The translations under genes were made by a program, and so were the position numbers. The notes beneath the pieces were generated by a model. That model searched no databases. It saw only the letters and a program-made list of their open reading frames with translations, and was not told the origin of the DNA. A stretch of 64,000 nt of DNA from a virus. Taxonomy: Duplodnaviria; Heunggongvirae; Uroviricota; Caudoviricetes. How positions within the stretch are numbered: position 1 is the stretch's first letter; each line of letters starts with the position of its first letter. This document shows, piece after piece, positions 3,227 to 37,081 of the stretch. Location of the stretch: IMG/VR virus record IMGVR_UViG_3300028591_000077. One strand, written 5' to 3'.

Positions 3227-5081
3227 TAAAGTAATCGTTCACAATTTTGGAAGTTATGGACATGCTGAAGTAGATTTAGCCAACAAAGGCTTTTGTTTAG
3301 TTTCTGGCAAAAATAACTATAAAAAGGATAACGCTTTATCAAATGGCTCAGGTAAGAGCTTTTTGTGGAGTGCTATCTGTTTTGCTTTAACTGGAGAGAC
3401 AATCAATGGTCTTCGCAGTAATTTAAAGAATATAAATGCAGACGAAGATGATAATACAAGTTACGTCGTATTAGACTTTAAATCAGGCGCAGACAGTTAT
3501 TCATTAAAAAGAATCATCGCGCCTAAGTCAGATTTAAAGATTACGAGAAACGGCGTTGACGCTTCTGGAAAAGGGTTAAGAGAATCTGAAGATAAGTTAG
3601 CTAGTTACCTTCCAGATTTAACCAAAGATCTCATTGCCTCGACGATAATCATCGGTCAAGGCATGCCTAATAAATTCTCTTCATTCAGTCCATCTGGAAG
3701 AAAAGAATTATTAGAAAAGCTTACAAAATCTGACTTTATGATTGAAGATTTAAAAAACAGAATCATAAATCGTCAAGCAGATCTTAATTTAAATCTCAGA
3801 AATTATGAAGATAGTTTATTGGTTCATAGAACGCAGTATGATACAACCAAAAAGCACCATGATAAGCTCGATGAAGAGATAAGCAAGTTAGTTCAACCAG
3901 ACTTCGATAAAGAAATTAAAGAATCATCTGAAAGAGTTGCAAAGCTCCAAAAACAATACGATGAGCAAACGGCTGAAATCAAACGACTTGAACAAGAGAA
4001 TGAAGCAGCCAATACCAAGCTAACAAAACAAAGTGATGAAAAACTAAAAGTAAGCACTGAAGAGCTTACGGCTTACGGAAACTCTACTTCTGAGCTTACA
4101 CATGAAAAAGCAAGATTAGGCGGACGAATTACAAGCCTAACCTATGAAATAAAACGCTTAAAAGCTATTACTGACATCTGTCCAACCTGTGGACAAAAGA
4201 TACAAGGCGTTGTAAAACCTGACACATCTCAGCAAGAACAAGAGCTTACTGAAAGCAACCGTCAAATGGTTGATGTGACAAGAAGATTAAATGAAGCTGC
4301 TGATAAGCATAAAGAATATATTAAAAATATCAACGCAGCTTTCGACGATACAATCAATACTTTAAGACAAACAATACTAAACAATAAAAAGGCGATAAAT
4401 AAATTAAGAGAAGAGTCTACTAAGTGCTTTGAGATACTAAGCACTGAAAAAGCAGCTTATTCTAAATTAGTCTTTGATAAAGAAAATTGGGATAAATATG
4501 TTGCAGGAATTAAGAGCTCTATTGAGGCAGATAATGAGGCATTGGCTAAATTAGATAGCACAATCAGTGTTATGTCTGCTGCAAGACAAGATACCCTAGA
4601 GCATATTGCCATCGTTAAAAAGATGGACACACTCGTAAAAAGAAATTTCAGAGGCTATCTATTATCGAATATTATTGGTTATATTGATAGACGTGCCAAA
4701 GATTACTGCAATACTGTTTTTGGAACTAGAGAACTTAGTGTCTATCTCAACGGAAACTCATTAGACATTTCTTACTGCGGTAAAATGTTTGATAACTTAT
4801 CCGGAGGAGAAAAACAAAGAGTAGACCTCATTCTACAATTTGCTATCAGAGATATGCTTATGTCTTATCTAAACATGAATTCAAATATTCTTGTCTTAGA
4901 TGAAATCACAGACTTCTTAGATAAGCAAAGCTGCGCAGCCGTTATGAAGCTCATTGAAAAAGAATTGAACACAATTGAATCTGTGTTTATTATCTCACAC
5001 CACGCAGAAGAGCTTGAGCTGCCAATTGATTCAGAATTACACGTGGTAAAAGATGAAAATGGTATAAGTGAGGTTTATTAG
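3213..5081 (+). CDS. Rad50/SbcC/gp46-like recombination ATPase
   Basis: Walker A NGSGKS, coiled coil with CPTC zinc hook, LSGGEK signature, LVLDE Walker B, ISH. Confidence 0.92.
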   Translation: MLQFNKVIVHNFGSYGHAEVDLANKGFCLVSGKNNYKKDNALSNGSGKSFLWSAICFALTGETINGLRSNLKNINADEDDNTSYVVLDFKSGADSYSLKRIIAPKSDLKITRNGVDASGKGLRESEDKLASYLPDLTKDLIASTIIIGQGMPNKFSSFSPSGRKELLEKLTKSDFMIEDLKNRIINRQADLNLNLRNYEDSLLVHRTQYDTTKKHHDKLDEEISKLVQPDFDKEIKESSERVAKLQKQYDEQTAEIKRLEQENEAANTKLTKQSDEKLKVSTEELTAYGNSTSELTHEKARLGGRITSLTYEIKRLKAITDICPTCGQKIQGVVKPDTSQQEQELTESNRQMVDVTRRLNEAADKHKEYIKNINAAFDDTINTLRQTILNNKKAINKLREESTKCFEILSTEKAAYSKLVFDKENWDKYVAGIKSSIEADNEALAKLDSTISVMSAARQDTLEHIAIVKKMDTLVKRNFRGYLLSNIIGYIDRRAKDYCNTVFGTRELSVYLNGNSLDISYCGKMFDNLSGGEKQRVDLILQFAIRDMLMSYLNMNSNILVLDEITDFLDKQSCAAVMKLIEKELNTIESVFIISHHAEELELPIDSELHVVKDENGISEVY

Positions 5082-11710: not shown

Positions 11711-11725
11711 TGCTAAATTAATTGA
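11711..11725 (+). promoter_or_regulatory. phage late promoter motif
   Basis: TGCTAAATTAATTGA; 11 intergenic copies of YGCTAAATTA in the window. Confidence 0.7.
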
Positions 11726-11757
11726 CAATCAAGAAAAATTTTAAAGGAGATTATCTA

Positions 11758-12912
11758 ATGGCAGGACAATTACTATCATTAACACCTGAAATTCAAGCTT
11801 GGATGCACGATGTCTTAGTTTGGGGTGGAAAATTAAAAGCTGCCTCTATCGTTCGTCCACATAATTATGGACAAATGTATGAGTTTGGCTCAGCTGAAGG
11901 TGAACAAGCTGCTAAGGATATCTGTGAAGAAATTACTACAAGAAACTTTGATATTCATCAAAAAGTAGATCATGCTTTAGATATTATTTCAAAGTATTAT
12001 TTTAATCCAGATATCAACTCTAACAGCAACGATAAAGCCGACTGCAAACGTATTAGTGCTTCTACAGCTGCAGAATATATCGCTGTTTTCTGTAAAGCAA
12101 TGAATATCGTTTGGAACGACAAATCAAGAAGTAACGAAGAAATTAAATTATTTAAAGATACTAAACTTGGTGCTCAATTATGGAGATATCAATGCTTCGT
12201 ATCACAAATTGGTGGTGGAGTTAGAGTAACCACTACTGCTGGTGGAACAAGACCTAAATCAGCTAGTGGCTCAACAGGGCCAACAAATGACTATAAAGCC
12301 TCTGGCCCACAATCTGGCAATGCAAGAGGTTTAGTTGGTAATCCGCATGAAAAAATTAATCCAAAAGGCGAATGGGGAAAAATGTTTGACGTTGAGTATG
12401 ATAAGAAAGGCGTTAATGTTCCTTATTTATTCGTTGACCCACTTGGAAAAAAAGGTGATGCTGGAAACAATGTTAACAAAGTCTTAGAAGGCAGTGGTAA
12501 TGGCTATACTGATTGCGCTTGCTATTTCAATACACGCGAAGAAGCAGATGAGTTTAAAAAGAGATACGCTGAACTTCATAATTTAAAACCAAGACAATTG
12601 CCAAATGACCAAGGAATTGTCTATGATAGCGGTAAGTTCTCAGGCTTACATGTCGGTAAAGGAAACTTACAGCCAAATGGATATTTTATGGTAAATACTG
12701 AATGTGGCAAATGCTACATCAGAGCAAATAAACTTAATGAAGACATTGACCTTGATGAAGAGCTTGAAGTTGAAGAAGTGCTTCCTGAAAGCAAATTAAT
12801 CAGTGAAATGACTACAGAAGAATTTGAAGCTTATAAAGCTAAGAAGAAAAAAGCTTTTGAAGACATGCAAGGATTCTTCAACGATTATGTAAAATATGAT
12901 TTACATAAATAG
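11758..12912 (+). CDS. hypothetical protein with acidic L-x-E-rich C-terminus (putative internal head protein)
   Basis: AAGGAG RBS, ATG 11758; KLNEDIDLDEELEVEEVLPESKLISE tail. Confidence 0.6.
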   Translation: MAGQLLSLTPEIQAWMHDVLVWGGKLKAASIVRPHNYGQMYEFGSAEGEQAAKDICEEITTRNFDIHQKVDHALDIISKYYFNPDINSNSNDKADCKRISASTAAEYIAVFCKAMNIVWNDKSRSNEEIKLFKDTKLGAQLWRYQCFVSQIGGGVRVTTTAGGTRPKSASGSTGPTNDYKASGPQSGNARGLVGNPHEKINPKGEWGKMFDVEYDKKGVNVPYLFVDPLGKKGDAGNNVNKVLEGSGNGYTDCACYFNTREEADEFKKRYAELHNLKPRQLPNDQGIVYDSGKFSGLHVGKGNLQPNGYFMVNTECGKCYIRANKLNEDIDLDEELEVEEVLPESKLISEMTTEEFEAYKAKKKKAFEDMQGFFNDYVKYDLHK

Positions 12913-12935
12913 ACTGAACCAAGGAGAGATTAAAA

Positions 12936-14366
12936 ATGAAAATTAATAAAAATAAAGCTATTAATGAAGAATTAATTAAAGAAAATAAAGCTTTAACTGA
13001 AGAAGATGAAAAAGTCGAAACTTCACCAAGCGGTGATGTTACTGTTACCACAAGTGAAGAAGGTGGAGTCAGAACTACTTCTGTTGACCTTCCATTAGAC
13101 TCAAATGGTAATCCTGCCACAGCTGAAGCTAAAGAATATGCACACAATGCTATCACTGACGCATTAGATTATGTTCTTAGAGTTACAAATCACAGAAAGA
13201 GACTTGTACAAGGCGGCTTCAATACTTTTGGAACAAGTAAAAATGTATTAATCGTTGGTCTTCCTGGTTCCTCAAAAACCACATCCGTTAAAGGCTGATG
13301 TGAAGCTAAGGGATTAACCTGTTACCAGATCGACGTCAGAGACTCAGAACTTGAAGTTACTTTAAACGGTGCTCCATTCTTTGAGAAATCTGAAGATGGC
13401 AAGAAAACAATGATTTCTAAAGCCGCTTCTCATGCCTTAGACGGATTAGACGACCCAAATGGCAGCGTCTTATTCTTAGATGAGTTAAACAGACAAAAAG
13501 ATGCCGGTATTCGTGGTTCTTTATTAAAATTAGTCGCTGAAAAATCAGTCTTAGCTGCTGGTGAAAAAGGCGGCGTCCGTTATTTCCCAAATCTATTATT
13601 TGCAGTTGCTGCTATCAACCCATACGATTCAAGAGACGATGGCGTTGATAAATTAGGCGATGCTGAAAAACGTAGATATAACGTTGTTGTTGAATTCAAC
13701 TCAACTGCTGAAAGTGCACAAGCATTCGTAGATTTCAGCTATGATACAAACCTTAAACAATGCGCAAAACTTTATGCAGATCCAAATCATGACCCAGAAT
13801 TTTATTGGGGTGTATTAAAACAATTTATTTATGGTAAGAGCGTCGCTACCCATGTATTAAATTACCCAGGCTTCAAATTTGATGGTAATGCAGAAGCAAC
13901 TCTTACATTAAGAGACGATAAAACATTATTCAACCAAGCTACATTTACAGATGCTATCTTTGATGCTGGTGAATTATTCGTTTCTTCACCAAATGCAACT
14001 GTAAGCCAATTCATCAAGCATCTTATTGCTGACTTCAAGTCCGCAAACTTATTAGATTCTACATTTACAATGCTAAAGAGCGCTTTAAATGCTTATCGTC
14101 CTGCGGGCGATTTCAAAGCATTAGTCGAAGCTGAAGAACAAATGTTAGATATCGATTTAGGTAGTAAAGAATTAAATGGCAACGGCATTCCAGTAAAGAA
14201 ACCTGGTGAAGCTGGTTCTGATGACCAAGAGGATTCAGGACACTTATTTGGTGGCGCTTCTAATGACCTTGGAACTGCTGGAAATAACGCTACAGAAACA
14301 GCTAGCGAGGTTGAGGATAGAATGACTGATTTCTTCGGAAATCTTGGTGGCGGACCTAAAATATAA
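12936..14366 (+). CDS. MoxR/AAA_5-type AAA+ ATPase (TGA 13296 = Trp)
   Basis: VLIVGLPGSSKT (Walker A), VLFLDELNR (Walker B), AAINP (sensor 1), AEKRRY (Arg finger). Confidence 0.85.
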
Positions 14367-14386
14367 TTAAAGGGAGGCAAATTAAT

Positions 14387-15532
14387 ATGTCTAAAATGTT
14401 AAATAGACTATTAGAGGCAAGGATTGAAAAACGTGCCATAATGCTCCCAGACGAAGAAAGACTAAAAGAACTTTTAATTGATAATTTGCGTGACGATGGC
14501 AATGGCCATCGTCATGCCAAGTTTGCAAAACGTTTAGAGGACTTTGATGTAAATATCGTTCCATTAGATGTCGACCAAGAATTTACTGCTGCTATCTCTT
14601 TTGATGAAGCGGTAATATTCATTAGTGAAGGTTTCTTAAAAGTCAGACTTACAGAAGAGCAAGTATTTGAGCAATTAAATGTCTTAATTAGACACGAATT
14701 GTGCCATGCTCTTTTAATGCATCAAATTAGAATGATGCATGTATTAGAACAAAAATATGGTGATGAAGCTGCACAACATTTAAGTGTTAGTGCATCACTT
14801 CATGATTTACTTAACGCTGTTGAAGACTGGGATATTTCAAATCAAGCCTATAGCGCTGCTGATAAAAAATTAGTTAAAGCCTTAAAACACAGCTTAAGAG
14901 AAATTCCTGGTTTAGTTACCGAACTAGATAACCAAGGTAAAGGCTGGGAAAACATGACAGTAGAAGAAATGTATAATGCTGTCGAAAACGAAATTACAAA
15001 AATTAATAAATTAATCCTTGCTAATGATGCCTGGGGATTAGAAACAACTGTTGTCGATCATTCTACAATGACTGCTTATAAACTTGCAACATTATATAGA
15101 GACAAACAAGCAACAACTACGATTCCAGGCACTATAAGAGGATTAACAAAAAGCCCACAATTTAAAGAATGGCATAAGTATTACCAAGAAATCGTATTAC
15201 AATTGCTAGAGAAATATGAAAAAACTACTGTTTCTGAACAAGAAACACAAGACATGATTGACAAGATTGCTGCCTCAGCTCCATTAGAAAAAGTAGAGCT
15301 ATTCGGTGGTGATATAGTATTATATTCGCCTGAAGAAAAAGGCCTAGCAATGGATGTAATCAAAAAACTAAGTAAAATTCCAGAATATCAGTTACCTAAA
15401 ATTAAAATCAAAAAGAAATCACACTCTCCAGAGTATGTAAAGGCATATAATGACACAGTTAATAAATATGACGATGATTCTGTGCCATTAGAAGATGTTA
15501 TGGAAATCTTAGCTGGCGTTGGAGGAGCATAA
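14387..15532 (+). CDS. HExxH metallopeptidase-like protein (DUF2201 N-terminal type)
   Basis: TAAISFD...LIRHELCHALLMH...LLNAVEDWDIS. Confidence 0.75.
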   Translation: MSKMLNRLLEARIEKRAIMLPDEERLKELLIDNLRDDGNGHRHAKFAKRLEDFDVNIVPLDVDQEFTAAISFDEAVIFISEGFLKVRLTEEQVFEQLNVLIRHELCHALLMHQIRMMHVLEQKYGDEAAQHLSVSASLHDLLNAVEDWDISNQAYSAADKKLVKALKHSLREIPGLVTELDNQGKGWENMTVEEMYNAVENEITKINKLILANDAWGLETTVVDHSTMTAYKLATLYRDKQATTTIPGTIRGLTKSPQFKEWHKYYQEIVLQLLEKYEKTTVSEQETQDMIDKIAASAPLEKVELFGGDIVLYSPEEKGLAMDVIKKLSKIPEYQLPKIKIKKKSHSPEYVKAYNDTVNKYDDDSVPLEDVMEILAGVGGA

Positions 15533-15534
15533 TA

Positions 15535-17457
15535 ATGACAAAAGACGAAATTAAAAAAGCTGTAGAAGAAATTAAAGCGATGCCCCCTGATGCTAGACAA
15601 GGTGCTATTGATGCCTTAATGGATATCTTCTTATCTCAACAAGGCGGTGCAGGCATTCCTCAAGATACAGAAATTGAGGTTGACCCTGATTTAGAGACAC
15701 CTGCCGGTAAAGCCGGTAAAATGCCTAAGACAGATATTGAAGACCCAGATGGCGTATTAAATCAGGCAAAAGTACATAGACGTAAAAATCAAAAACAAGA
15801 CCAGCAAGACCAAAGTGAATCTGGAATGAAAGGTTCACAAGGACAGGGTGGTGGACAAAGTAGTCCTGATAATCAAGAAGACTCAGAGGATACCCAAGGC
15901 GAAGAAGGTCAAGAAGGGCAAGATAGCCAACAAAGTCAAGATGGCCAACAAGGACAACAAGGACAGCAAGGTCAACAGGGACAGCAAGGTTCAAATGGTC
16001 AAAGTGGTCAAGAAGGCTCCGACGGTCAAGAAGGCCAGGAAGGCCAAGACGGTCAGGAAGGCAAAGATGGTAAAGATGGCCAAGAAGGCCAAAATGGTCA
16101 AAGTGGACAACAAGGTCAGCAAGGAAACCAAAATGGCCAGAATGGTTCAAAGGGTTCTGAAAGTGGTTCTCAATCCGGTGGTGGAGAAGAAACTGGTGAC
16201 GATGATGGTTCCGGCGATATCGGTGGCGGTAACGACGACGAGAAAGATGGAGACGGTAAAGGCGCCGGCGATCAAGAAGGCGATGAATCAGGAAAAGGCG
16301 GAGAAGAAGGCGACAAAGAAGGCGAAGGTTCTGGCTCTGGCAATGGCGAAAAAGAAGGCGAAGGCGAAGAACAAGGTAAAGGTTCTGGAACTGGTGCTGG
16401 CGCAGGTGAAGGCGAAGACGAAGGAGAAGAAGACGATGGTGTTGACTACTCCAAAGTTCACAGAGAATTAAATGATAAAGAAAAAGCCGAAGCTGCACGC
16501 CAAAAGAAAACAGAAGCTTCTCGTGTTGCTCAACTTGGTAGAAAAGCCTTAAGCAAAGCTCCTGCAGACGCAGACCCAGCCAAAATTCAAAGAATTAAAG
16601 AATTGACCGAAGAATTAGAAAAGATTGCCAGTAGCTCAAATGCAGATGTCAATGCAGTTGACTGGGATGATATTCACGAAAAAGAAAACGAATTAATAGA
16701 TTTGAGTAAGGACCTTGTTACAGTTCATGAAACACCAGATAGACCTGAAAGAATCAAAAAAGTAAAAGATATCATCAATAATCCGGTTATAAGCCAACAA
16801 ATACAACAAGAAATTACAGCTGATAAACGTAATGACCCAACACTTGTTAAAAAATATGGCTTAGGACAATTAAATGTCGGTTCTTATTATACAATGGGTG
16901 ACTTCAAAGCTGATATTAAGCTTTGTATCGATTCTCAAGTTGCTAGAAGAAAAGAAACGGTTAAAACATTTAGCGTTCCAAATAAGAGACATGCTGCAGC
17001 TGGTTCACCAATGGTTGTTAAAGGCACTCGCCGTAAAACCATTGAAAAGAAAGATGCGCCGCTTATTGCCGTATTCGTTGACCAATCAGGGTCATGGAAT
17101 GAAGAAGACATTCAAAAGGGTAAAGAATCAATGTCTATCCTTGATGAATTAGTCAGAAAAGGCGATATCAAAGAAGTTCAATATTATTTCTTCGCTAATG
17201 GCGTTTATGAATTACCAGAACAAGCAAGACGTGAAGGTGGCACACATGCTTGGCCAAGAGTAATGAGTAAAATTAAAGAAATTGGTGCTGATAACGTTGT
17301 CATTATGTCAGATGATGACTTAGCAGATCAAAGTAGTCCACAAACACAACTCCATATTGATGGTTGTGTATGGTGGATTTGGAAATATTCAACTAGCCCA
17401 AGATGCACTAAAGAGCTCATCGGTGATGCTGGAAACTTCCAATATAAATTATATTAA
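15535..17457 (+). CDS. VWA-domain protein with G/Q/E low-complexity linker
   Basis: IAVFVDQSGSW MIDAS motif, GGT, VIMSDD; central Gly-X-Y run. Confidence 0.8.
   Translation: MTKDEIKKAVEEIKAMPPDARQGAIDALMDIFLSQQGGAGIPQDTEIEVDPDLETPAGKAGKMPKTDIEDPDGVLNQAKVHRRKNQKQDQQDQSESGMKGSQGQGGGQSSPDNQEDSEDTQGEEGQEGQDSQQSQDGQQGQQGQQGQQGQQGSNGQSGQEGSDGQEGQEGQDGQEGKDGKDGQEGQNGQSGQQGQQGNQNGQNGSKGSESGSQSGGGEETGDDDGSGDIGGGNDDEKDGDGKGAGDQEGDESGKGGEEGDKEGEGSGSGNGEKEGEGEEQGKGSGTGAGAGEGEDEGEEDDGVDYSKVHRELNDKEKAEAARQKKTEASRVAQLGRKALSKAPADADPAKIQRIKELTEELEKIASSSNADVNAVDWDDIHEKENELIDLSKDLVTVHETPDRPERIKKVKDIINNPVISQQIQQEITADKRNDPTLVKKYGLGQLNVGSYYTMGDFKADIKLCIDSQVARRKETVKTFSVPNKRHAAAGSPMVVKGTRRKTIEKKDAPLIAVFVDQSGSWNEEDIQKGKESMSILDELVRKGDIKEVQYYFFANGVYELPEQARREGGTHAWPRVMSKIKEIGADNVVIMSDDDLADQSSPQTQLHIDGCVWWIWKYSTSPRCTKELIGDAGNFQYKLY
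15943..16131 (+). repeat. 21 uninterrupted Gly-X-Y triplets (9-nt period)
   Basis: GQQ x5, GSN, GQS, GQE, GSD, GQE, GQE, GQD, GQE, GKD, GKD, GQE, GQN, GQS, GQQ, GQQ, GNQ. Confidence 0.85.
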
Positions 17458-29584: not shown

Positions 29585-30910
29585 ATGAGACAAAATTTAC
29601 TTGAAACTTATTCAAGACAATTAAAAGTCGCAGAAGCTTATGTCGCAAAGAACTTTGACGGCAGAACAGTTTCTAGCAACGCCAAACTTACTACTGCTGT
29701 CTTATTAGACAACACAAACAGATGGATGACAGAAGCTCTTAACACTGTCGCAACTGAGAGATCAGACCTCGGTGCTTGGAAGAAATTCTGCTTAAACCTC
29801 ACAAACATCGCTGTTCCTAGCTTAATCGCTAACGATTTAGTCATCGTTCACCCAATGACTTCTTACAGCGGCTCAGTTGCATACTTAAAGTATGTTTCTA
29901 AGACTGATAAGGGTGGAATCGAAAAAGGCCACGAATTCAACAGTGTCTTCGGACTTGGTGAATCTTCAGAAGCCAGAACTAACTTCACTTCACAAGTTAT
30001 CGTTGAAGAAGTTGGTTCAAGCGGAAAATTAGCTTTAACTCCTATCGCAAACGGCAGATTCGTTAAAGAAGACGAAGATGTTGCTGCTGGTAAGGGCTAT
30101 GATGCTAAAGTCATCCACGCTGATGGCAAAGTCGAATTCTTCAAAGTCGCTGACTTAGTTTACGGCGCAGGTGACAAAGTTGCTTACGTTTCAGAAGAAT
30201 TCCAAATGGAAAGAGTTCCTGCAAAGGATATCCCAACCATTGGTCCAAAAATGGAACACATCGCCTTAGTTGCAGAACCAAGACGTATCGCTGTCCGTTA
30301 CGACCAAATCACAGCCTTCCAAGCAAAGACTGACTACGGCTTCTCACTCGATAAACAAATCGCTGAACAAGCTTGTGGTGAATTAGCTTACGAAATCGAT
30401 ACTGAAATCGTTCGTATGTTAGCTGATGGCGCTGGTGAAGCTCTTCCAGAATTAACCTGGTCAAAGACCCTTCCACACGGCGTTAGCAAATTTGAGCACT
30501 ACAATGGCTTCTTAGAAGTTATTGAAAAAGCTCGTGCAATCATCTACAAGAGAACCAAGAAATTCCATCCTAACTACATGGTAATCAACGCTGATGTCTT
30601 ACCAGTCATCAAGTTCGTCAATGGTTACACTGGAGTTAAGAATCCTAAGATGAATGGTCCTTACAAAGTTGGTGAAATCGACTCATTATCAGTCTATGTT
30701 TCCCCAGAATTAGGTGAAGGCGAATTCTTCTTCGGCTTAAACGGTTCCGATATGATGAGCTCTGCTGGTGTCTACGCACCTTACATGGCTATCGTTCCAA
30801 CCCAATTACTTGGTACACCAGACGGTGGTTTAGCACAAGGCTTCAGCACTTGGTACGCAAAAGCATTACTCAACAAGAACCTTCTTGTTGCTGGTAAGAT
30901 TGTTGACTAA
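29585..30910 (+). CDS. Major capsid protein (gp23-like)
   Basis: PSLIANDLVIVHPMT, LAYEIDTEIV, AGVYAPY, STWYA; strong codon bias; follows the protease. Confidence 0.93.
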   Translation: MRQNLLETYSRQLKVAEAYVAKNFDGRTVSSNAKLTTAVLLDNTNRWMTEALNTVATERSDLGAWKKFCLNLTNIAVPSLIANDLVIVHPMTSYSGSVAYLKYVSKTDKGGIEKGHEFNSVFGLGESSEARTNFTSQVIVEEVGSSGKLALTPIANGRFVKEDEDVAAGKGYDAKVIHADGKVEFFKVADLVYGAGDKVAYVSEEFQMERVPAKDIPTIGPKMEHIALVAEPRRIAVRYDQITAFQAKTDYGFSLDKQIAEQACGELAYEIDTEIVRMLADGAGEALPELTWSKTLPHGVSKFEHYNGFLEVIEKARAIIYKRTKKFHPNYMVINADVLPVIKFVNGYTGVKNPKMNGPYKVGEIDSLSVYVSPELGEGEFFFGLNGSDMMSSAGVYAPYMAIVPTQLLGTPDGGLAQGFSTWYAKALLNKNLLVAGKIVD

Positions 30911-30941
30911 TTGCTAGTCTAGCTAATCAGTAAGAATAAAT

Positions 30942-30967
30942 AAGAACCTCTTCGGAGGTTCTTTTTT
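30942..30967 (+). terminator. intrinsic terminator with cUUCGg tetraloop
   Basis: AAGAACCTC-TTCG-GAGGTTCTTTTTT. Confidence 0.9.
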
Positions 30968-30998
30968 ATAGCCTTAAATAATAAATTTAATAAATATT

Positions 30999-31013
30999 TG
31001 CTAAATTATACAG
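30999..31013 (+). promoter_or_regulatory. phage late promoter motif driving the glycosylation cassette
   Basis: TGCTAAATTATACAG. Confidence 0.65.
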
Positions 31014-31029
31014 ATGAAGGGATAAACTT

Positions 31030-32064
31030 ATGAATTTAATAGCAAAGGAATTTTCAAGATACTCTAATTACATAGAGCATAATAAGTTTAAAAATAAGGT
31101 ATTTCTAATAACAGGAGCAAAAGGCTATTTGGCCAGCTCTTTAATTAGATTTTTATTATACCTAAATAAGACTTATAATTTAAACTTATTTATTTATGCT
31201 ACAACTCGAAATCCAGATAATATACCTAATTATGCTGATGAATTTATAAAATATATTAGTTTTGATACTTTTGAATCTTATAATTATGTAAGCAAAATAG
31301 ACTTTGTAATACATACAGCAAATCCAACGTCAAGACTTGAATTTATCAATAATCCACTTGGAACTTTTGATATTATAAATAATGGAACAAGACGTGTGCT
31401 TGAATTCTCAAAAAATCATAATATTAAATCACTATTATATTTGTCCTCAGTGGAAGTCTACGGGAGTCCAAAAACTACTAAAATGGTAAAAGAATCTGAT
31501 TATTTTGCTTTGGACCCAAATGATTTGAGAAACTGCTACCCACTTGGTAAAAAAGTCGCAGAATACTTATGCAATACTTATTATAAACAATTTAATCTAC
31601 CAGTTAATATTGTAAGACCATCATCAGTTCAAGGCTTATTCCAACCTTATACTGAGGATAGAATTTTTAATCAGATTCTTAGATGTATTATTGAGCATAA
31701 AGACTTTATATTCAAAACTAAAGGTGAGACTGCTAAAACATTAATTTATACAATGGATGCCATTACGGGCATGCTTACTATATTGACTTCTGGAAAATAT
31801 GGTGAAACTTATAATCTTACAGATAATAAGACTTTCTTTATGATGAAAGATATTGTTAAAATGATTTTTGAACATTTTAATACGGGTTTACAAGTAAAAT
31901 TTGATTTAGAAGATGATACCAAAACAGGATATATTGCACCGCTTTCATATAATCTTTCAACTGAAAAATTAGAAAGCCTTGGCTGGAAGCCACAGACTGA
32001 CTTATACCATATCTATGAAATTGATTTAAGGAGGTTTAATTATGAAAAATCTAGCAATAATTAA
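31030..32064 (+). CDS. NAD-dependent epimerase/dehydratase/reductase (extended SDR)
   Basis: ITGAKGYLA, LYLSSVEVYG, YPLGK (YxxxK), GETYN, LGWKP. Confidence 0.88.
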   Translation: MNLIAKEFSRYSNYIEHNKFKNKVFLITGAKGYLASSLIRFLLYLNKTYNLNLFIYATTRNPDNIPNYADEFIKYISFDTFESYNYVSKIDFVIHTANPTSRLEFINNPLGTFDIINNGTRRVLEFSKNHNIKSLLYLSSVEVYGSPKTTKMVKESDYFALDPNDLRNCYPLGKKVAEYLCNTYYKQFNLPVNIVRPSSVQGLFQPYTEDRIFNQILRCIIEHKDFIFKTKGETAKTLIYTMDAITGMLTILTSGKYGETYNLTDNKTFFMMKDIVKMIFEHFNTGLQVKFDLEDDTKTGYIAPLSYNLSTEKLESLGWKPQTDLYHIYEIDLRRFNYEKSSNN

Positions 32065-32764
32065 AATCGCCGGAAAGGGAACAAGAGTTCACACTGACAT
32101 TCCAAAACAATTTGTAGAAGTTCATGGTAAACCAATATTTATTTATACTTTAGAAGCTTTTGAGCAATCTAATTTAACTGATGCTATTTCAGTAGTAACA
32201 TCAAAAGAGTGACTTGATTTTGTAAAAGAAAATTGTAAAAAATTTAACATTACAAAAGCAAAGTTCTTCTGCTTGGGTGATGAAAAATATGGAAATGGTA
32301 GCACATTCAATGGTTATAAAGAAGCATTAAATAATGGATATTTTCCTGACTATATAATTTCTCATGATGGTGTCAGAGCTTTAATTACTCCAGAAGATAT
32401 TGATGGCTGCATTAAAAAGTGTGTCGGCTCAGATAATGGAATTAGCCAAATGGCTAAGGAGCTAACTGGTTCAGTATTATTCAAAAATGATCATTGGAAT
32501 GTTATTAATAGAAATGAAGTATTAGAACTTGCAACACCAATTGTGCTAAAGAACAGAATTTTTGATAGACTCTATACTTACTATCAAATAGCTACTGATG
32601 AACAAAAAGAAAAATGGTTTGGGCTAGATACTATGTTTATGGAAGAATTTGCTCATTGCATTACTCCATATGTCAGTGATAAACTAAACTTTAAAATTAC
32701 TACTGATAATGACTTAAAATTCTTTAAAGACTTAATTGAAGTAAGAGGTAACCATTATGAGTAA
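32042..32764 (+). CDS. IspD/TarI-like polyol-phosphate cytidylyltransferase (TGA 32210 = Trp)
   Basis: AGKGTRV..DIPKQF...GKPIFIYTLEAF, SHDGVR, NFKITT. Confidence 0.88.
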
Positions 32765-33917
32765 ATATATGATTTTTTATGACAGAGGTTATAGAGCCCA
32801 AGATAATGCTGAGCATCTTTGTAGATGGGTTATGAAAAATCACCCGGAAATTAAAACAGGTTATATTTTAAATAGTAATTCATATGACTGAAAAAGACTT
32901 GAAAAAGAAGGCTTTCATTTAATAGACGGTTTATGCAAAGTAGTAACACATAGAGAATTACTTAAATGTGATTATGCTTGCTCTTCTATATTTAATGAAG
33001 GAATCTGGCTAGATTTTTCAGGCTGTCATTGTAAACGCATCTTTTTAAATCATGGGCTATTCTTAGTACCTATTAACTATATTAAAGCTGAATGTAACAA
33101 TGTTGATTTATTTATTGCTACTAATAAAATTGAGTACTTTAATCTATTAGACCCATTCCATAAATTAACGCCTGAACAAGTAGCCCTTTGTGGCCAGCCA
33201 CGTCAAGATAATTTAGTTAGACAACAATTAGCCCCGCATAAAGAAAATACTATCTTAATTCAATTCTGACAAAGACCAGGTGATTGGTGTAAAAATGATA
33301 ATAAAAAGTTTTTAGAATCAATATTTTATAAAAAAACTTGTGAGTTATTAACTAATAAAAAATTACTTTATCTTTGTAAAAAGAATGACTTAAAATTAGT
33401 ATTTAAAATGCATCCAATTCAATATGACTGACTAAAATACTATAAAAAATATGAATCTGACTTTGTTGAAATAAGTGATATTACAAAACCATTTGAGCCT
33501 GAATTTATTAAAAGTAAGTTTATAATAACAGATATTAGTTCGAATGCTTATGAAATGGCTAAGATAAATAAGCCTTGTATTTATTTTGAACCTGATGCAA
33601 AAGACCTATTTTCTTGAAGAGCACAAAGAAATGGTAAGATAGAATTTGATCTTGATCACAACAGCATTGGTCCCGTAATTTATGACTCAGTAGATAAGCT
33701 AGTCGATGAAATTGAAACATTAATACACAATAATTATAAGCTTGCACAAATATATCTTGATAGACGTAATAGTCAACTGGCTTTTTTGAATAACATGGAT
33801 AACTGTAGTCGTTGTTTTAATGCAATATTAAATGTTAATAAATCAAGAACAGCTGAAAAAACAGCTGAAGAAGAAGCTAAAAAAGCTGCCGCTGAAGAGC
33901 ATTATCTATATTTTTAA
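32757..33917 (+). CDS. TagF/TagB-like CDP-polyol phosphotransferase (TGA 32889, 33267, 33429, 33615 = Trp); absent from the ORF track
   Basis: YDR..RAQDNAEHL, DWKRLEKEGF, IFLNHG, GQPRQD, QFWQR, FKMHP, IITDISSNAYE, KPCIYF; ends YLYF. Confidence 0.85.
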
Positions 33918-33930
33918 AGGAGATAACGCT

Positions 33931-34632
33931 ATGTTACAATTTATGCAAATATATGGAAATTGCACTGCTGTTCATTGTCTTGGTCTAAATCGCATTAAAG
34001 GTCCTGTTGATAATGTTCAAACGAAAAATTATAAAGTAATTGAGCTACTACTAACAAATAAATATTTTGATTATATAAAAAATGCTCAATTTGAACAAAC
34101 AAGTAGACCTGCTGGTTTTAGTGGTGACTCAAATATTGCCTACTCAACACCAATAGTTAGAATAGTCCATAATAATCCGCTAACTGATAAATATTTAAGT
34201 AATCTAAAAGTAAGATGTAAAAATTTTAATAATTTTATAAAAAACTTAGATGATACTAAATTTTTAATTTATGCTATAAATATTTATGATATAAAAGAAG
34301 ATCATACTCTTCGAGGAAATAACTTAATTACAAATATAGAATATCTTAAAAAAGTAAGATTACTTGACAAAGTTATTTTTATAGGTTCACGCGGCAATAG
34401 CTGAAGCAATTTCTGGTCAAATAGCCTTGAACCAATTATAAAAAAATATAATTTAAAATATATAGAAATGACTGGTATTAAAGCAATGAAAGATGCTACA
34501 CCAGAATATTTTGAAAAATTATATAAGCAATTTTATACTAAAGCTGAAGCTATAATAAAAAACAAAGCTAACAAAAAACCAAAAAATAAAGAAACTAAAA
34601 AAGAAGAACAAACCTATTATTTATACTTCTAG
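33931..34632 (+). CDS. DUF1796-like (papain-fold) protein (TGA 34402 = Trp)
   Basis: YGNCTAVHCLG..RIKGPVD...LLLTNKYFD and IVHN...LKVRCKNF resemble the DUF1796 G.nC...PFDW...H...RR pattern; ends YLYF. Confidence 0.55.
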
Positions 34633-34643
34633 GAGGCATAATT

Positions 34644-35432
34644 ATGAAAATATGTTTCGGAATACCAAGCTGGCTACCAGATAAAGAACCTGATAGAACA
34701 CAGCGTAGAGAAAGAATCAATAGATTATTTAAACAACTCAATGATTTTTGGCCAGACATTGATATTTTGGTTATTGCCCAAAATTGGCAAGATTTTAAGC
34801 CGATAGAGACACGAAATAAACAAGTAATAAAAGAATATAAGCCATTAGGAATTCTGCTCGCCAGAAAGACTTTAAGAGAAGAATTCTTAAAATTGAATTA
34901 TGATTATATTATTATGTTTGACGATGATGCAATAATTCAATGTGATAACAATCATGCACATATTGATTTTATTAATGAAATCGTTAAGCATCCGCAAGGT
35001 TTTTGCTTTATTCATGGTAAAAACAGCAAGTATCATCCATATATTGGTGCTCAACTAAATCTTTGTGCAATCTCAAAATTTATTTATGAACAAGAACAAA
35101 TGGTAGACATTGACCCACAGAAAGACGAAGGTTATGAAGACAGCATATTCGCCTGCCTGCTACATCATAAATATGGCAAATATGAGTTTATGCCACCAGC
35201 AACCATAAGACCTATACAGTGGATGAATAGAAAAGAACAAATAGCATCTACTTGATCTGATGATAAAAATAATGGCCATTGGGCTGTAATGAATAAAAAC
35301 ACTAATAGAATTCAAGAATATATAGTTACCTATAAAAAATTTCCTGAAAACTATAAGAAAATGATAGAAGCCTACGAAGAGCCTAACTATGATACAAGCT
35401 GAGTGAAAGAAGATACTTATTTATATTTCTAA
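34644..35432 (+). CDS. GT-A fold glycosyltransferase (TGA 35253, 35400 = Trp)
   Basis: FGIPS, GILLARKTLRE, YIIMFDDD, GYEDSIF; ends YLYF. Confidence 0.75.
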
Positions 35433-35436
35433 AAAA

Positions 35437-35468
35437 TGCTAAATTAAATGTTATTATCGTATAATATA
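35437..35468 (+). promoter_or_regulatory. tandem late-type and TATAAT-type promoters
   Basis: TGCTAAATTAAATG at 35437 and CGTATAATATA at 35458. Confidence 0.5.
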
Positions 35469-35482
35469 TGTGAGGTGTTTTA

Positions 35483-36268
35483 ATGCAAGAAATATCAAAA
35501 CATGATATCTTAGCCAATTGGAACAATGAAAATTGGGAAGGTTGGCATTCAGAAAAGTATGTTAAAGCTCGTGCTAAAAATAAAAACACCGTTCGGGATG
35601 ATAAATATTTAAGAGAAAATATTATATCAAAGTTTCCTATCACAACTGAAATATTATCATTAAAAGAAATTAATGAAAATTGGCATAATGAAGATTGGTG
35701 GAAAACCAATATTGGAAATGTCATTAATTTATTTGATAATATGTATGTTAAGAAAGGAATAAAATCCTGTAGCGGAATCTATGCGAGCTGGTTAACAAGA
35801 TTAACGCAGTATGATATAACGAGAATAGCTGAAAAAACTGTAGCAAAAAACAAAGGCTACGACTGAAACGAAGCTGGGCATTCTTATATTCATACAGGGC
35901 ATGCGACGCCAGAAGAAGCACAGCCGGACTTTAAAGATAAAGACGGACAAGACATTGAGCTAAAAGTTTGTGAAAATGAGAATTCAATAGTATATCATTA
36001 TTTTAAGAAATTAAAAAATAGCTTTGATTATACTAAACAACATGATTTTCACGGAGCGCAAAAAGCTCTATTTTTAACAAAAGCTGCTCCACATAAGCTA
36101 TATGCTATCGATTTAAACTCTATAGACGACCTGGCCTTACAAATAGGCGAAGATATAGAGCTTGATATTATTCCAACAAAGAATGGTAAAATCATAAATA
36201 AAGATGATTTACCAGCTGTCCCACCTGCTATTTTATTCGGTTTAACGCCAGCATGGGCTAAAAAGTAA
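35483..36268 (+). CDS. putative PD-(D/E)XK endonuclease (TGA 35864 = Trp)
   Basis: IAEK...QPDFKDKDGQDIELKVC; GAGGTG RBS. Confidence 0.55.
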
Positions 36269-36321
36269 TTAAAAAATTAGAGAGTATTATTGATTTATGC
36301 ATAATACTTTCTTTTTTTATT

Positions 36322-36336
36322 CGCTAAATTATATGA
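36322..36336 (+). promoter_or_regulatory. phage late promoter motif
   Basis: CGCTAAATTATATGA. Confidence 0.7.
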
Positions 36337-36358
36337 TAAGTTGTCAGGAGGATCGTTA

Positions 36359-37081
36359 ATGAAGTTACAAGAAGTAATCGATGAAATCAAACTTGAATTG
36401 ACCGGTTCCGTTCTTGAAATGGAAATTGAAGATGCTACTATTAAACAAATCGTAAACAAAGTTCTCAGAGAGCTTGAAAGATTCTGGGACGAGACTACGA
36501 TGATTACGATTCCATTCGCATCTTGCATCGATTTGTCTGGCAGTGACTTCTATGAACGCGTAAGCTCAATTGTGAAAGTATATCGTGTCCAAGGCCTTGG
36601 AGAAGGCGGAGACGGCGTAAATGCAATGACTGACCCATTATATATGCAACAATATATGATATTCAGCAACGGCGGCACGATGTATAATCTACAAGATTAT
36701 ATCATGAACTATGCATCATGGATTACATTGTCAAAAATCAAAAATACCATTTCAACAGACATGTCATTCAAAGAAGACCGACACAACAATAAATTATATA
36801 TTAATAATTATATGTCTTCACCTGGATATGTAACTATCGAATACATCCCTAAATTAAAATCCGTTGAGGATATTAAAAGTGATTATTGAATCGATATCCT
36901 GGTAAGAATGAGCGTCGCCTTAACAAAGGTTGTGGTTGGTAGAATCAGAACAAGATTCACGCAAGCCGGAGCCCTTTGGACACAAGATGGCGAAAAAATC
37001 CTCGAAGAGGGTAATACAGAACTAAAAGAACTTAGAGAAGTTCTAAGAGCAAATTCCAATCTAGTCTATCCAATAGATTAG
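36359..37081 (+). CDS. Neck/head-tail adaptor, gp13-like (TGA 36887 = Trp)
   Basis: C-terminal YWIDILVRMSVALTKVVVGRIRTRF...DGEKILEEGNTELKELREVL resembles the T4 gp13 W.K.YA.AL.K...G...DG..l.eEa..E...LREeL pattern. Confidence 0.8.

Follow-up and report, generated by a model that had tools for sequence, protein, structure and literature searches.

Encapsulins send unrelated enzymes to a shell of the HK97 fold by means of a short terminal cargo-loading peptide that follows a flexible linker, and the sliding clamps, T4 gp45 and the beta clamp, are bound via short hydrophobic peptides carried by unrelated proteins. Here we analyse a C-terminal tail of this general kind, [YF]LYF followed directly by a stop codon, which is carried by glycan enzymes encoded next to the capsid gene of a tailed phage, in a 64,000-nucleotide stretch of viral DNA (IMG/VR record IMGVR_UViG_3300028591_000077; this whole stretch is hereafter the window). 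Virion glycans made by phage glycosyltransferases (GTs) have been reported at the C-termini of the capsid and tail tube proteins of mycobacteriophages Che8 and Rita, where shielding was proposed as their function (Freeman et al. 2023, as related in PMC12619734 and PMC11256854), and TagF-like capsule polymerases are described as joining GT and polyol-phosphate transferase activities to make teichoic-acid-like polymers (Litschko et al. 2018, PMC5974469). A preprint on the TGA-recoded Jade phages describes a tryptophanyl-tRNA synthetase (TrpRS) together with RF1 and predicts that Jade-like phages infect Firmicutes; its main text, as distinct from its supplements, contains no word beginning 'glycos' (bioRxiv 10.1101/2021.08.26.457843). 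We found no description of a YLYF tag in a literature search whose coverage stopped short of subscription papers and bioRxiv supplements.

We propose that the [YF]LYF-COOH tail docks capsule-type enzymes on the assembling phage head, where a putative teichoic-acid-like coat would be primed on Ser145 of the major capsid protein (MCP), a reading that sequence comparison leads us to hold with moderate confidence. Directly observed were the tail, its restriction to acceptor-acting enzymes, the disordered linker that precedes it, the swap of the gene cassette between strains and the co-variation of Ser145 with the cassette. An earlier reading of the window alone (the original prediction) had put forward a docking tag shared by three unrelated glycan enzymes, and the idea as a whole is partly supported by the comparisons described here.

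The window holds the head-to-tail region of a T4-like myovirus that uses genetic code 4, with profile matches to portal, prohead protease, gp23-like capsid, neck adaptor, sheath, tube and baseplate proteins, and the interval between capsid and neck (30910 to 36359) contains a terminator-like hairpin, the GCTAAATT motif, five glycan genes and one gene of no known family. Three consecutive plus-strand genes in this interval end in YLYF at the positions first proposed. These genes encode a TagF-like polyol-phosphate transferase (32757..33917; PF04464, E=2e-14), with its tag at 33903..33917 (TAT CTA TAT TTT TAA); a 233-residue SGNH/GDSL-like protein (33931..34632), named from a structure model and with Cys11 and His80 invariant in the family alignment, with its tag at 34618..34632 (TAT TTA TAC TTC TAG); and a phage GT-A glycosyltransferase with an invariant DDD motif (34644..35432; phrog_2456, E=1.7e-4, and viral GT2/GT7C-like clusters), with its tag at 35418..35432 (TAT TTA TAT TTC TAA). 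The tag codons differ among the three genes, so conservation is on the peptide level, as had been argued. The tag is confined to these 3 of 56 plus-strand genes, and YLYF occurs internally in none of the window proteins; the chance that any three of 56 genes would share any last four residues is 9e-6, and for three adjacent genes it is 2e-8. Two upstream genes, for an NAD-dependent SDR epimerase/reductase (31030..32064, plus strand; PF01370, E=6e-27) and an IspD/TarI-type cytidylyltransferase (32042..32764, plus strand; PF01128, and NF001183 ribitol-5-phosphate cytidylyltransferase at E=2e-23, below that profile's cut-off), lack the tag; the two enzymes together likely make a CDP-alditol donor.

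The reading of TGA as tryptophan is supported by the coding density of the window (0.94 under code 4 versus 0.83 under code 11), by a full-length 386-residue TagF in the protein collection (P0116) and by a near-identical strain that has TGG in place of the window TGA at 35400-35402. The statement that the tag is visible only under this code held for the enzymes, which are whole only then, but not for the tag codons, which read alike under code 11; code 4 is needed only to connect them with their enzymes. Two other details of the original prediction were not borne out. An EE or ED pair, said to precede each tag, was found in only 5 of 102 distinct tails, is peculiar to this window and was rejected as part of the tag. 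The label DUF1796-like for the 233-residue protein was not confirmed, with no Pfam or NCBIfam match to the protein and no Pfam match in the four family members tested; its model (pLDDT 87.7, residues 215-233 disordered) most resembles SGNH/GDSL esterases and O-acetyltransferases, with a middling score (VIA Z 7.1 against a guide value of 8, rmsd 3.8, 141 residues aligned). This model suggests that the protein is possibly a glycan acyltransferase or esterase, with a Cys that presumably sits where the nucleophile of the fold is expected.

Capsid-based scans yielded 55 viral and 67 metagenomic loci, and among the code-4 relatives varied cassettes occupy the same slot between capsid and neck, with [YF]LYF ends conserved on these variable genes in many of them. 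A census of distinct complete cassette genes, with Pfam classes assigned for representatives, showed that 31 of 53 acceptor-acting enzymes, in seven gene classes, end in [YF]LYF, while five carry variant aromatic tails and 17 are untagged. Numbers of tagged, variant and untagged genes were 11, 2 and 4 for the core GT-A class; 5, 1 and 0 for Stealth-containing genes; 4, 0 and 0 for TagF; 4, 1 and 0 for genes containing a pyruvyl transferase; 3, 0 and 2 for GT8; 2, 0 and 0 for a second GT-A class; 2, 1 and 7 for SGNH-like genes; and 0, 0 and 4 for GT2_4. None of the seven nucleotide-donor enzymes and neither of two SAM synthetases is tagged. The claim that only substrate-acting enzymes are tagged stands as far as donor enzymes are concerned, but a third group, the 17 untagged acceptor-acting enzymes, shows that the tail is not carried by all of them. 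In the protein collection, 59 of 115 homologues of the GT and 21 of 30 close homologues of TagF end in [YF]LYF, some of the untagged rows being code-11 truncations. Over 102 distinct tails the consensus is ADG[RK]K[ND][CT]YLYF.

The sequence checks set out with the docking-tag idea came out in its favour. In the SGNH-like family it is an extension after the last helix, disordered in the model, that is present in 3 of 10 members and so has been gained or lost. Among the 150 TagF relatives found when a profile was run against 1.84 billion representatives, ten are tagged, all within the top 17, and none of the next 133 is; five untagged distant relatives examined for domains are all GT2-TagF fusions, three of them with TPR matches. 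In three proteins (P0139-P0141), GT and TagF domains are fused and share one tail. The complete 232-kb genome of one relative (G001) has the [YF]LYF ending on its two cassette enzymes only, and in three partial records and the window it is likewise confined to cassette enzymes. A profile of the tag alone, run against longer proteins, recovered nothing beyond its two source proteins, being too short for E<=10; an extended tag pattern, in its DGxxN form only, gave five hits in viral contigs, all within known cassettes, and two in GTDB genomes, neither at a gene end; the TagF alignment gave no confirmed relative in the genome contigs collection; and a scan with the GT alignment gave two further tagged loci (L276 and L279) with the capsid gene out of reach and thus no new Ser145 rows.

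Other tail classes also recur across folds. Y[IM]G[FL]-like ends are found on 10 GTs, FTGLxEE[WY]WK on two GTs, three TagF proteins and one Stealth-type gene, and LPxxxExLFW on two TagF proteins. One code-4 phage (L269:9989-12509, minus strand) has a two-gene glycan cassette distant from its head genes, the second gene of which ends in FTGLPEEYWKDNF, a tail class shared with the GT and TagF homologues P0065, P0076, P0120, P0122 and P0142; this record, 57% complete, gave no MCP match. The sister phages G002 and G003 (L020, L058) have the variant tails YTGNFWSY, SQYIGL, SYFRGW and SYIGF, and their MCPs have in common a set of changes (W292F, I313F, P340Q, L368V and A417M) at sites that are invariant elsewhere. 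It is possible that these changes mark a pocket co-evolving with the variant tails, a suggestion drawn from one lineage only.

Comparison of near-identical strains indicates that the cassette is exchanged, with one to two events seen. Strain L104 is 99.7% identical to the window upstream of the cassette and 99.8% identical downstream, and the cassette itself is replaced. Its genes differ from the promoter-like motif onward (identity break at 31012), and its GT has 67 differing sites up to 35402 and matches beyond, so that divergence stops 16 nt before the third tag. Identity of a further locus (L085) to the window breaks at the same motif (31012). An end of exchange so close to a tag, together with a tag Leu codon that is TTA or CTA in 31 of 31 tags versus about 71% in cassette genes, would also fit a DNA-level recombination site at gene ends, comparable to those of integron cassettes, with the peptide as a by-product. 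We consider this explanation extremely unlikely: variation in the tag DNA is confined to synonymous sites and Y/F exchanges, with the stop alternating between TAA and TAG; the peptide consensus extends upstream of YLYF; and different peptide classes take the place of the tail in other lineages.

As the platform of the tail, the original prediction had named either the capsid or a clamp or packaging motor acting on DNA. The capsid is favoured because one MCP residue co-varies with the cassette. The MCP (29585..30910, plus strand; T4 gp23-like, 441 residues; PF07068, E=1e-24, with T4 gp23 chains as best PDB sequence matches) is the proposed substrate and platform, and its Ser145, in VEEVG-S-SGK (codon 30017..30019), is a candidate glycan acceptor or docking residue. 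Among relatives of known cassette status, Ser145 is present in 16 of 16 with the cassette and 1 of 24 without it. Of the 16, twelve show tails, on their own record or through an identical MCP, and in the other four just the beginning of a glycan cassette is visible; that the cassette is absent was verified record-wide with 47 queries for two genomes (G006 and G008) and with one GT query for eight more records. Ser145 is the best separator of the 441 MCP columns, with one mismatch compared to five for the next best, and the best column across 13 core proteins (separation 0.96 versus 0.88 for the next), the longer tail and baseplate proteins having too few rows for this comparison. The pattern first emerged from 16 rows with the cassette, all of which have Ser145, and 17 rows without it, none of which does; among rows that were added afterwards by new scans, six of seven without a cassette lack Ser145 and the single new tagged row (L126) has it. 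Relatives without the cassette often retain the loop with the Ser replaced (GADKK, GEDGK or GANGK versus GSDGK), and code-4 lineages without the cassette (L016, L092, L238 and L261) are also without Ser145. On a tree built without the loop, Ser145 and the cassette each change six times. The Fisher p value for the association (2.7e-10) was set aside because the rows are related.

The position of Ser145 is consistent with an outward-facing site. It aligns to about residue 174 of T4 gp23, in a low-confidence part of the HMM alignment, past linker 1 of the I domain, which comprises residues 132-160 in T4, where the I domain makes protrusions on the capsid surface (PMC9546572). In the MCP model, Ser145 comes after a strand with a local pLDDT of about 80; a Foldseek search with this model confirmed a P1/T4-type capsid and no more, the model being too poor for surface analysis. 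Alternatively, Ser145 could belong to the docking site for the tail, in which case the capsid would remain the platform.

Several observations weigh against docking and priming on the capsid. One 13.8-kb fragment (L230) carries Ser145 although its slot is free of glycan genes, and 13 of the 24 cassette-less rows form one clade. Independent pairs number two on well-supported branches (p 0.5) and six on the best tree, and the test cannot reach significance because only two pairs lie on well-supported branches. The loop alignment is gapped, and the model of the whole MCP is of low quality (pLDDT 55.6). The cassettes share no priming enzyme common to all, two of them (L021 and L036) being without GT-A. 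Distant T4-like phages, with MCPs 43-49% identical, bear an untagged GT-A of the same family near the capsid gene, and eight of these loci (L280, L283, L284, L288, L293, L296, L298 and L307) have no Ser at the BLAST-aligned position, in a loop that aligns badly and has Ser or Thr residues nearby. Another relative (G022) has an untagged glycan cluster elsewhere in the genome and no Ser145. Because these phages have untagged enzymes and no Ser, neither the tail nor Ser145 is required by the GT-A family everywhere; in the sequences compared, this family sits by head genes more widely, and the tail and Ser145 are confined to one group. Finally, adjacency of the cassette to the capsid gene is weak evidence alone because the slot 3' of the MCP gene also takes homing endonucleases and repeat-protein arrays.

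The untagged GT-A genes of the eight distant loci lie both upstream and downstream of the capsid gene. The G022 cluster (L274, G022:105000-120000), in a distant code-4 relative, is long, untagged and far from the capsid gene, and contains glycosyltransferase-like, Stealth and probable radical-SAM genes, labels assigned partly by eye.

The families involved leave room for a different destination. TagF and Stealth enzymes act on cell-surface polymers, Firmicutes are the predicted hosts of Jade-like phages, an aromatic tail after a basic linker could rest at a membrane, and the L269 cassette, with a different tail class, lies far from head genes. The tail might then gather the enzymes at the host membrane or an envelope protein and alter host teichoic acid or capsule, leading to receptor masking or superinfection exclusion, with Ser145 a passenger of descent. 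We regard this as the least improbable of the alternatives, yet unlikely: it leaves the Ser145 pattern unexplained, the motif in front of the cassette is the one found before structural genes, none of the cassettes showed a flippase, polymerase or export gene, and the near-fixed L, Y and F of the tail suit a pocket better than a bilayer.

Also unlikely, in our estimation, is that the tail docks on a scaffold that is not the completed shell, such as the enzymes themselves, a chaperone or the scaffold-protease, and that the glycan is attached to a different virion protein or to MCP not yet assembled. The capsid is a putative receptor, distant phages that have no Ser145 manage with untagged relatives of this GT, and several long virion proteins had too few rows for an acceptor-site comparison, all of which is compatible with such a scaffold. 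On the other hand, Ser145 separates the two groups better than any column of the 12 other core proteins, and comparison of G001 with G006 and G008 gave no convincing candidate for a partner gene exclusive to tagged genomes. Among the output examined, no Ser/Thr-rich tails on virion proteins tracked the cassette; the MCP ends in VAGKIVD and the tube protein in KPEHESF.

A short terminal peptide, a flexible linker, unrelated enzymes and an adjacent HK97-fold shell gene are features that would equally be expected of an encapsulin-like loading peptide, one by which the enzymes are loaded into the head and delivered along with the genome. This is quite improbable given that the untagged donor-making enzymes would not travel along and that the co-varying residue maps to the outer insertion domain.

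Docking on the sliding clamp or packaging motor, with the enzymes hypermodifying DNA, is less probable again. Relatives encode a DnaN-like clamp (TIGR00663, E=3.7e-4), and T4 alpha-glucosyltransferase was once reported to bind gp45, an interaction that the preprint citing it could not reproduce (bioRxiv 10.64898/2025.12.06.692756). However, the clamp is found with or without the cassette, no replication protein in the complete genome G001 has a [YF]LYF tail, and in five tagged records only cassette enzymes carry it. The phage polymerases instead start with a separate conserved [SG]LF motif in six of six genomes, which is probably their clamp-binding motif. Thymidylate synthase is encoded by one gene in each of five genomes (split in G008) and TET/JBP enzymes were found in none of five records, a search that did not scan the unshared genes of G001 against Pfam or extend to other base-modifying routes, so that no acceptor base is evident. 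The DNA branch is disfavoured because no base-hydroxylating enzymes were found, and the enzymes are of capsule type; the clamp as main platform was rejected. At G001:211132 and in homologues, the polymerase is a split family-A enzyme that begins M-x(1-2)-[SG]-L-F and adjoins the DnaN-like clamp gene.

If the capsid is the platform, as we favour, the pathway may be envisaged as follows. The untagged SDR and IspD enzymes would make diffusible CDP-alditol, with UDP-sugars supplied by the host. The aromatic C-terminus of each tailed enzyme would fit into a recurring pocket, either of the capsid lattice or of a head-assembly protein. A GT-A enzyme, which is the commonest cassette gene and a candidate priming enzyme, or GT8 in some relatives, would add the first sugar to Ser145 on the outward-facing insertion domain; TagF-, Stealth-, GT2- and GT8-type enzymes would extend a phosphodiester-linked chain of sugar and polyol phosphate; and pyruvyl- and acyl-transferases would decorate it. 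Exchange of the cassette from promoter to last tail would alter the coat, as exchange of a capsule locus alters bacterial serotype. In its fullest form, which we put forward tentatively and with somewhat less than even confidence, this is a serotype-like capsule: a poly(sugar polyol-phosphate) on an insertion-domain Ser of every capsid subunit, made by captured bacterial capsule enzymes that are retargeted by a C-terminal address of 4 to 11 residues, with lineage-specific addresses (YLYF, YIG[FL], FTGLxEEWWK) and coats switched by cassette exchange.

A terminator-like hairpin with a T-run, read from the sequence, lies 3' of the capsid gene (30942..30968, plus strand), and similar hairpins follow the MCP gene in relatives. 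The promoter-like GCTAAATT motif at the cassette head (31000..31007, plus strand) forms the left edge of the swapped tract. It has 14 copies on the plus strand and none on the minus strand between window positions 4545 and 54710, nearly all intergenic and just 5' of structural genes, which suggests that it is probably the late promoter of these phages; we take it to differ from the T4 late-promoter consensus. On the 3' side, the gene of no known family (35468-36268) is common to the cassette-less L016 and L017 and is retained in strain L104, and the head-tail adaptor (neck) gene (36359..37081, plus strand; phrog_211, E=2e-10) is conserved and bounds the variable slot downstream. At L035:13038-21312 and in L081, this slot holds, ahead of the tagged cassette, an array of about ten repeat-like proteins that are related to one another. 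Elsewhere in the window (11722-17457), an AAA ATPase, conserved neighbour proteins and a Gly/Gln-rich protein, found in all relatives compared, form a neighbourhood that, in our view, resembles a MoxR-type chaperone module. Some distant relatives (L246, L247, L253, L257 and L268) read best with TAG reassigned (coding density 0.75-0.93 under code 15 versus 0.25-0.69).

If the proposal is correct, virion glycosylation, so far documented for mycobacteriophages in the reports cited above, reaches giant phages of the T4 type as well, where the acceptor differs, the phosphodiester chemistry is of the capsule type and the coat switches at the strain level. With one residue, MCP Ser145, and one peptide named, the targets of phage capsule enzymes, and the way in which soluble enzymes find a virion substrate, become directly testable. 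A portable tail able to bring any enzyme to a capsid lattice would also offer a means of decorating protein particles.

The known systems each share part of this arrangement. The phages resemble the Jade clade (Borges et al., bioRxiv 10.1101/2021.08.26.457843) in code 4, genomes of more than 200 kb and, in G001, a TrpRS gene adjoining that for RF1 (both outside the window), a likeness of features as reported there and not a phylogenetic placement. Like the sliding-clamp motifs, YLYF is a short hydrophobic peptide common to unrelated proteins; unlike them, it is absent from replication and transcription proteins, and the searches above turned up no modified-base pathway. With the mycobacteriophage systems, as reported, the locus shares phage-encoded glycosyltransferases and a capsid protein as proposed acceptor. 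In contrast to those systems, the MCP and tube C-termini lack a Ser/Thr tail that tracks the cassette, and the candidate is an internal Ser145 in a T4-type insertion domain; polyol-phosphate, Stealth and pyruvyl transferases, a shared tail and a swappable cassette set it further apart. New here is the co-variation of MCP Ser145 with the tagged cassette. The locus recalls the TagF-like capsule polymerases, as described, in that GT and TagF genes are adjacent in the window and fused with one tail in P0139-P0141, and in that GT2-TagF(-TPR) fusions are among the closest untagged relatives of the phage TagF, but those polymerases are fused cellular enzymes, whereas the phage enzymes are mostly separate genes with a shared tail, in a head module and with no export system. 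The short terminal peptide past a flexible linker, on unrelated proteins and beside an HK97-fold shell gene, recalls the encapsulins, but here the shell is a tailed-phage capsid flanked by portal, terminase, prohead protease, sheath and tube genes, the docking site is predicted to lie outside, and the shell would be substrate and not container. By analogy, then, the system appears to take its chemistry from the TagF-like capsule polymerases and its logic from the loading peptides of encapsulins, and to be a member of neither.

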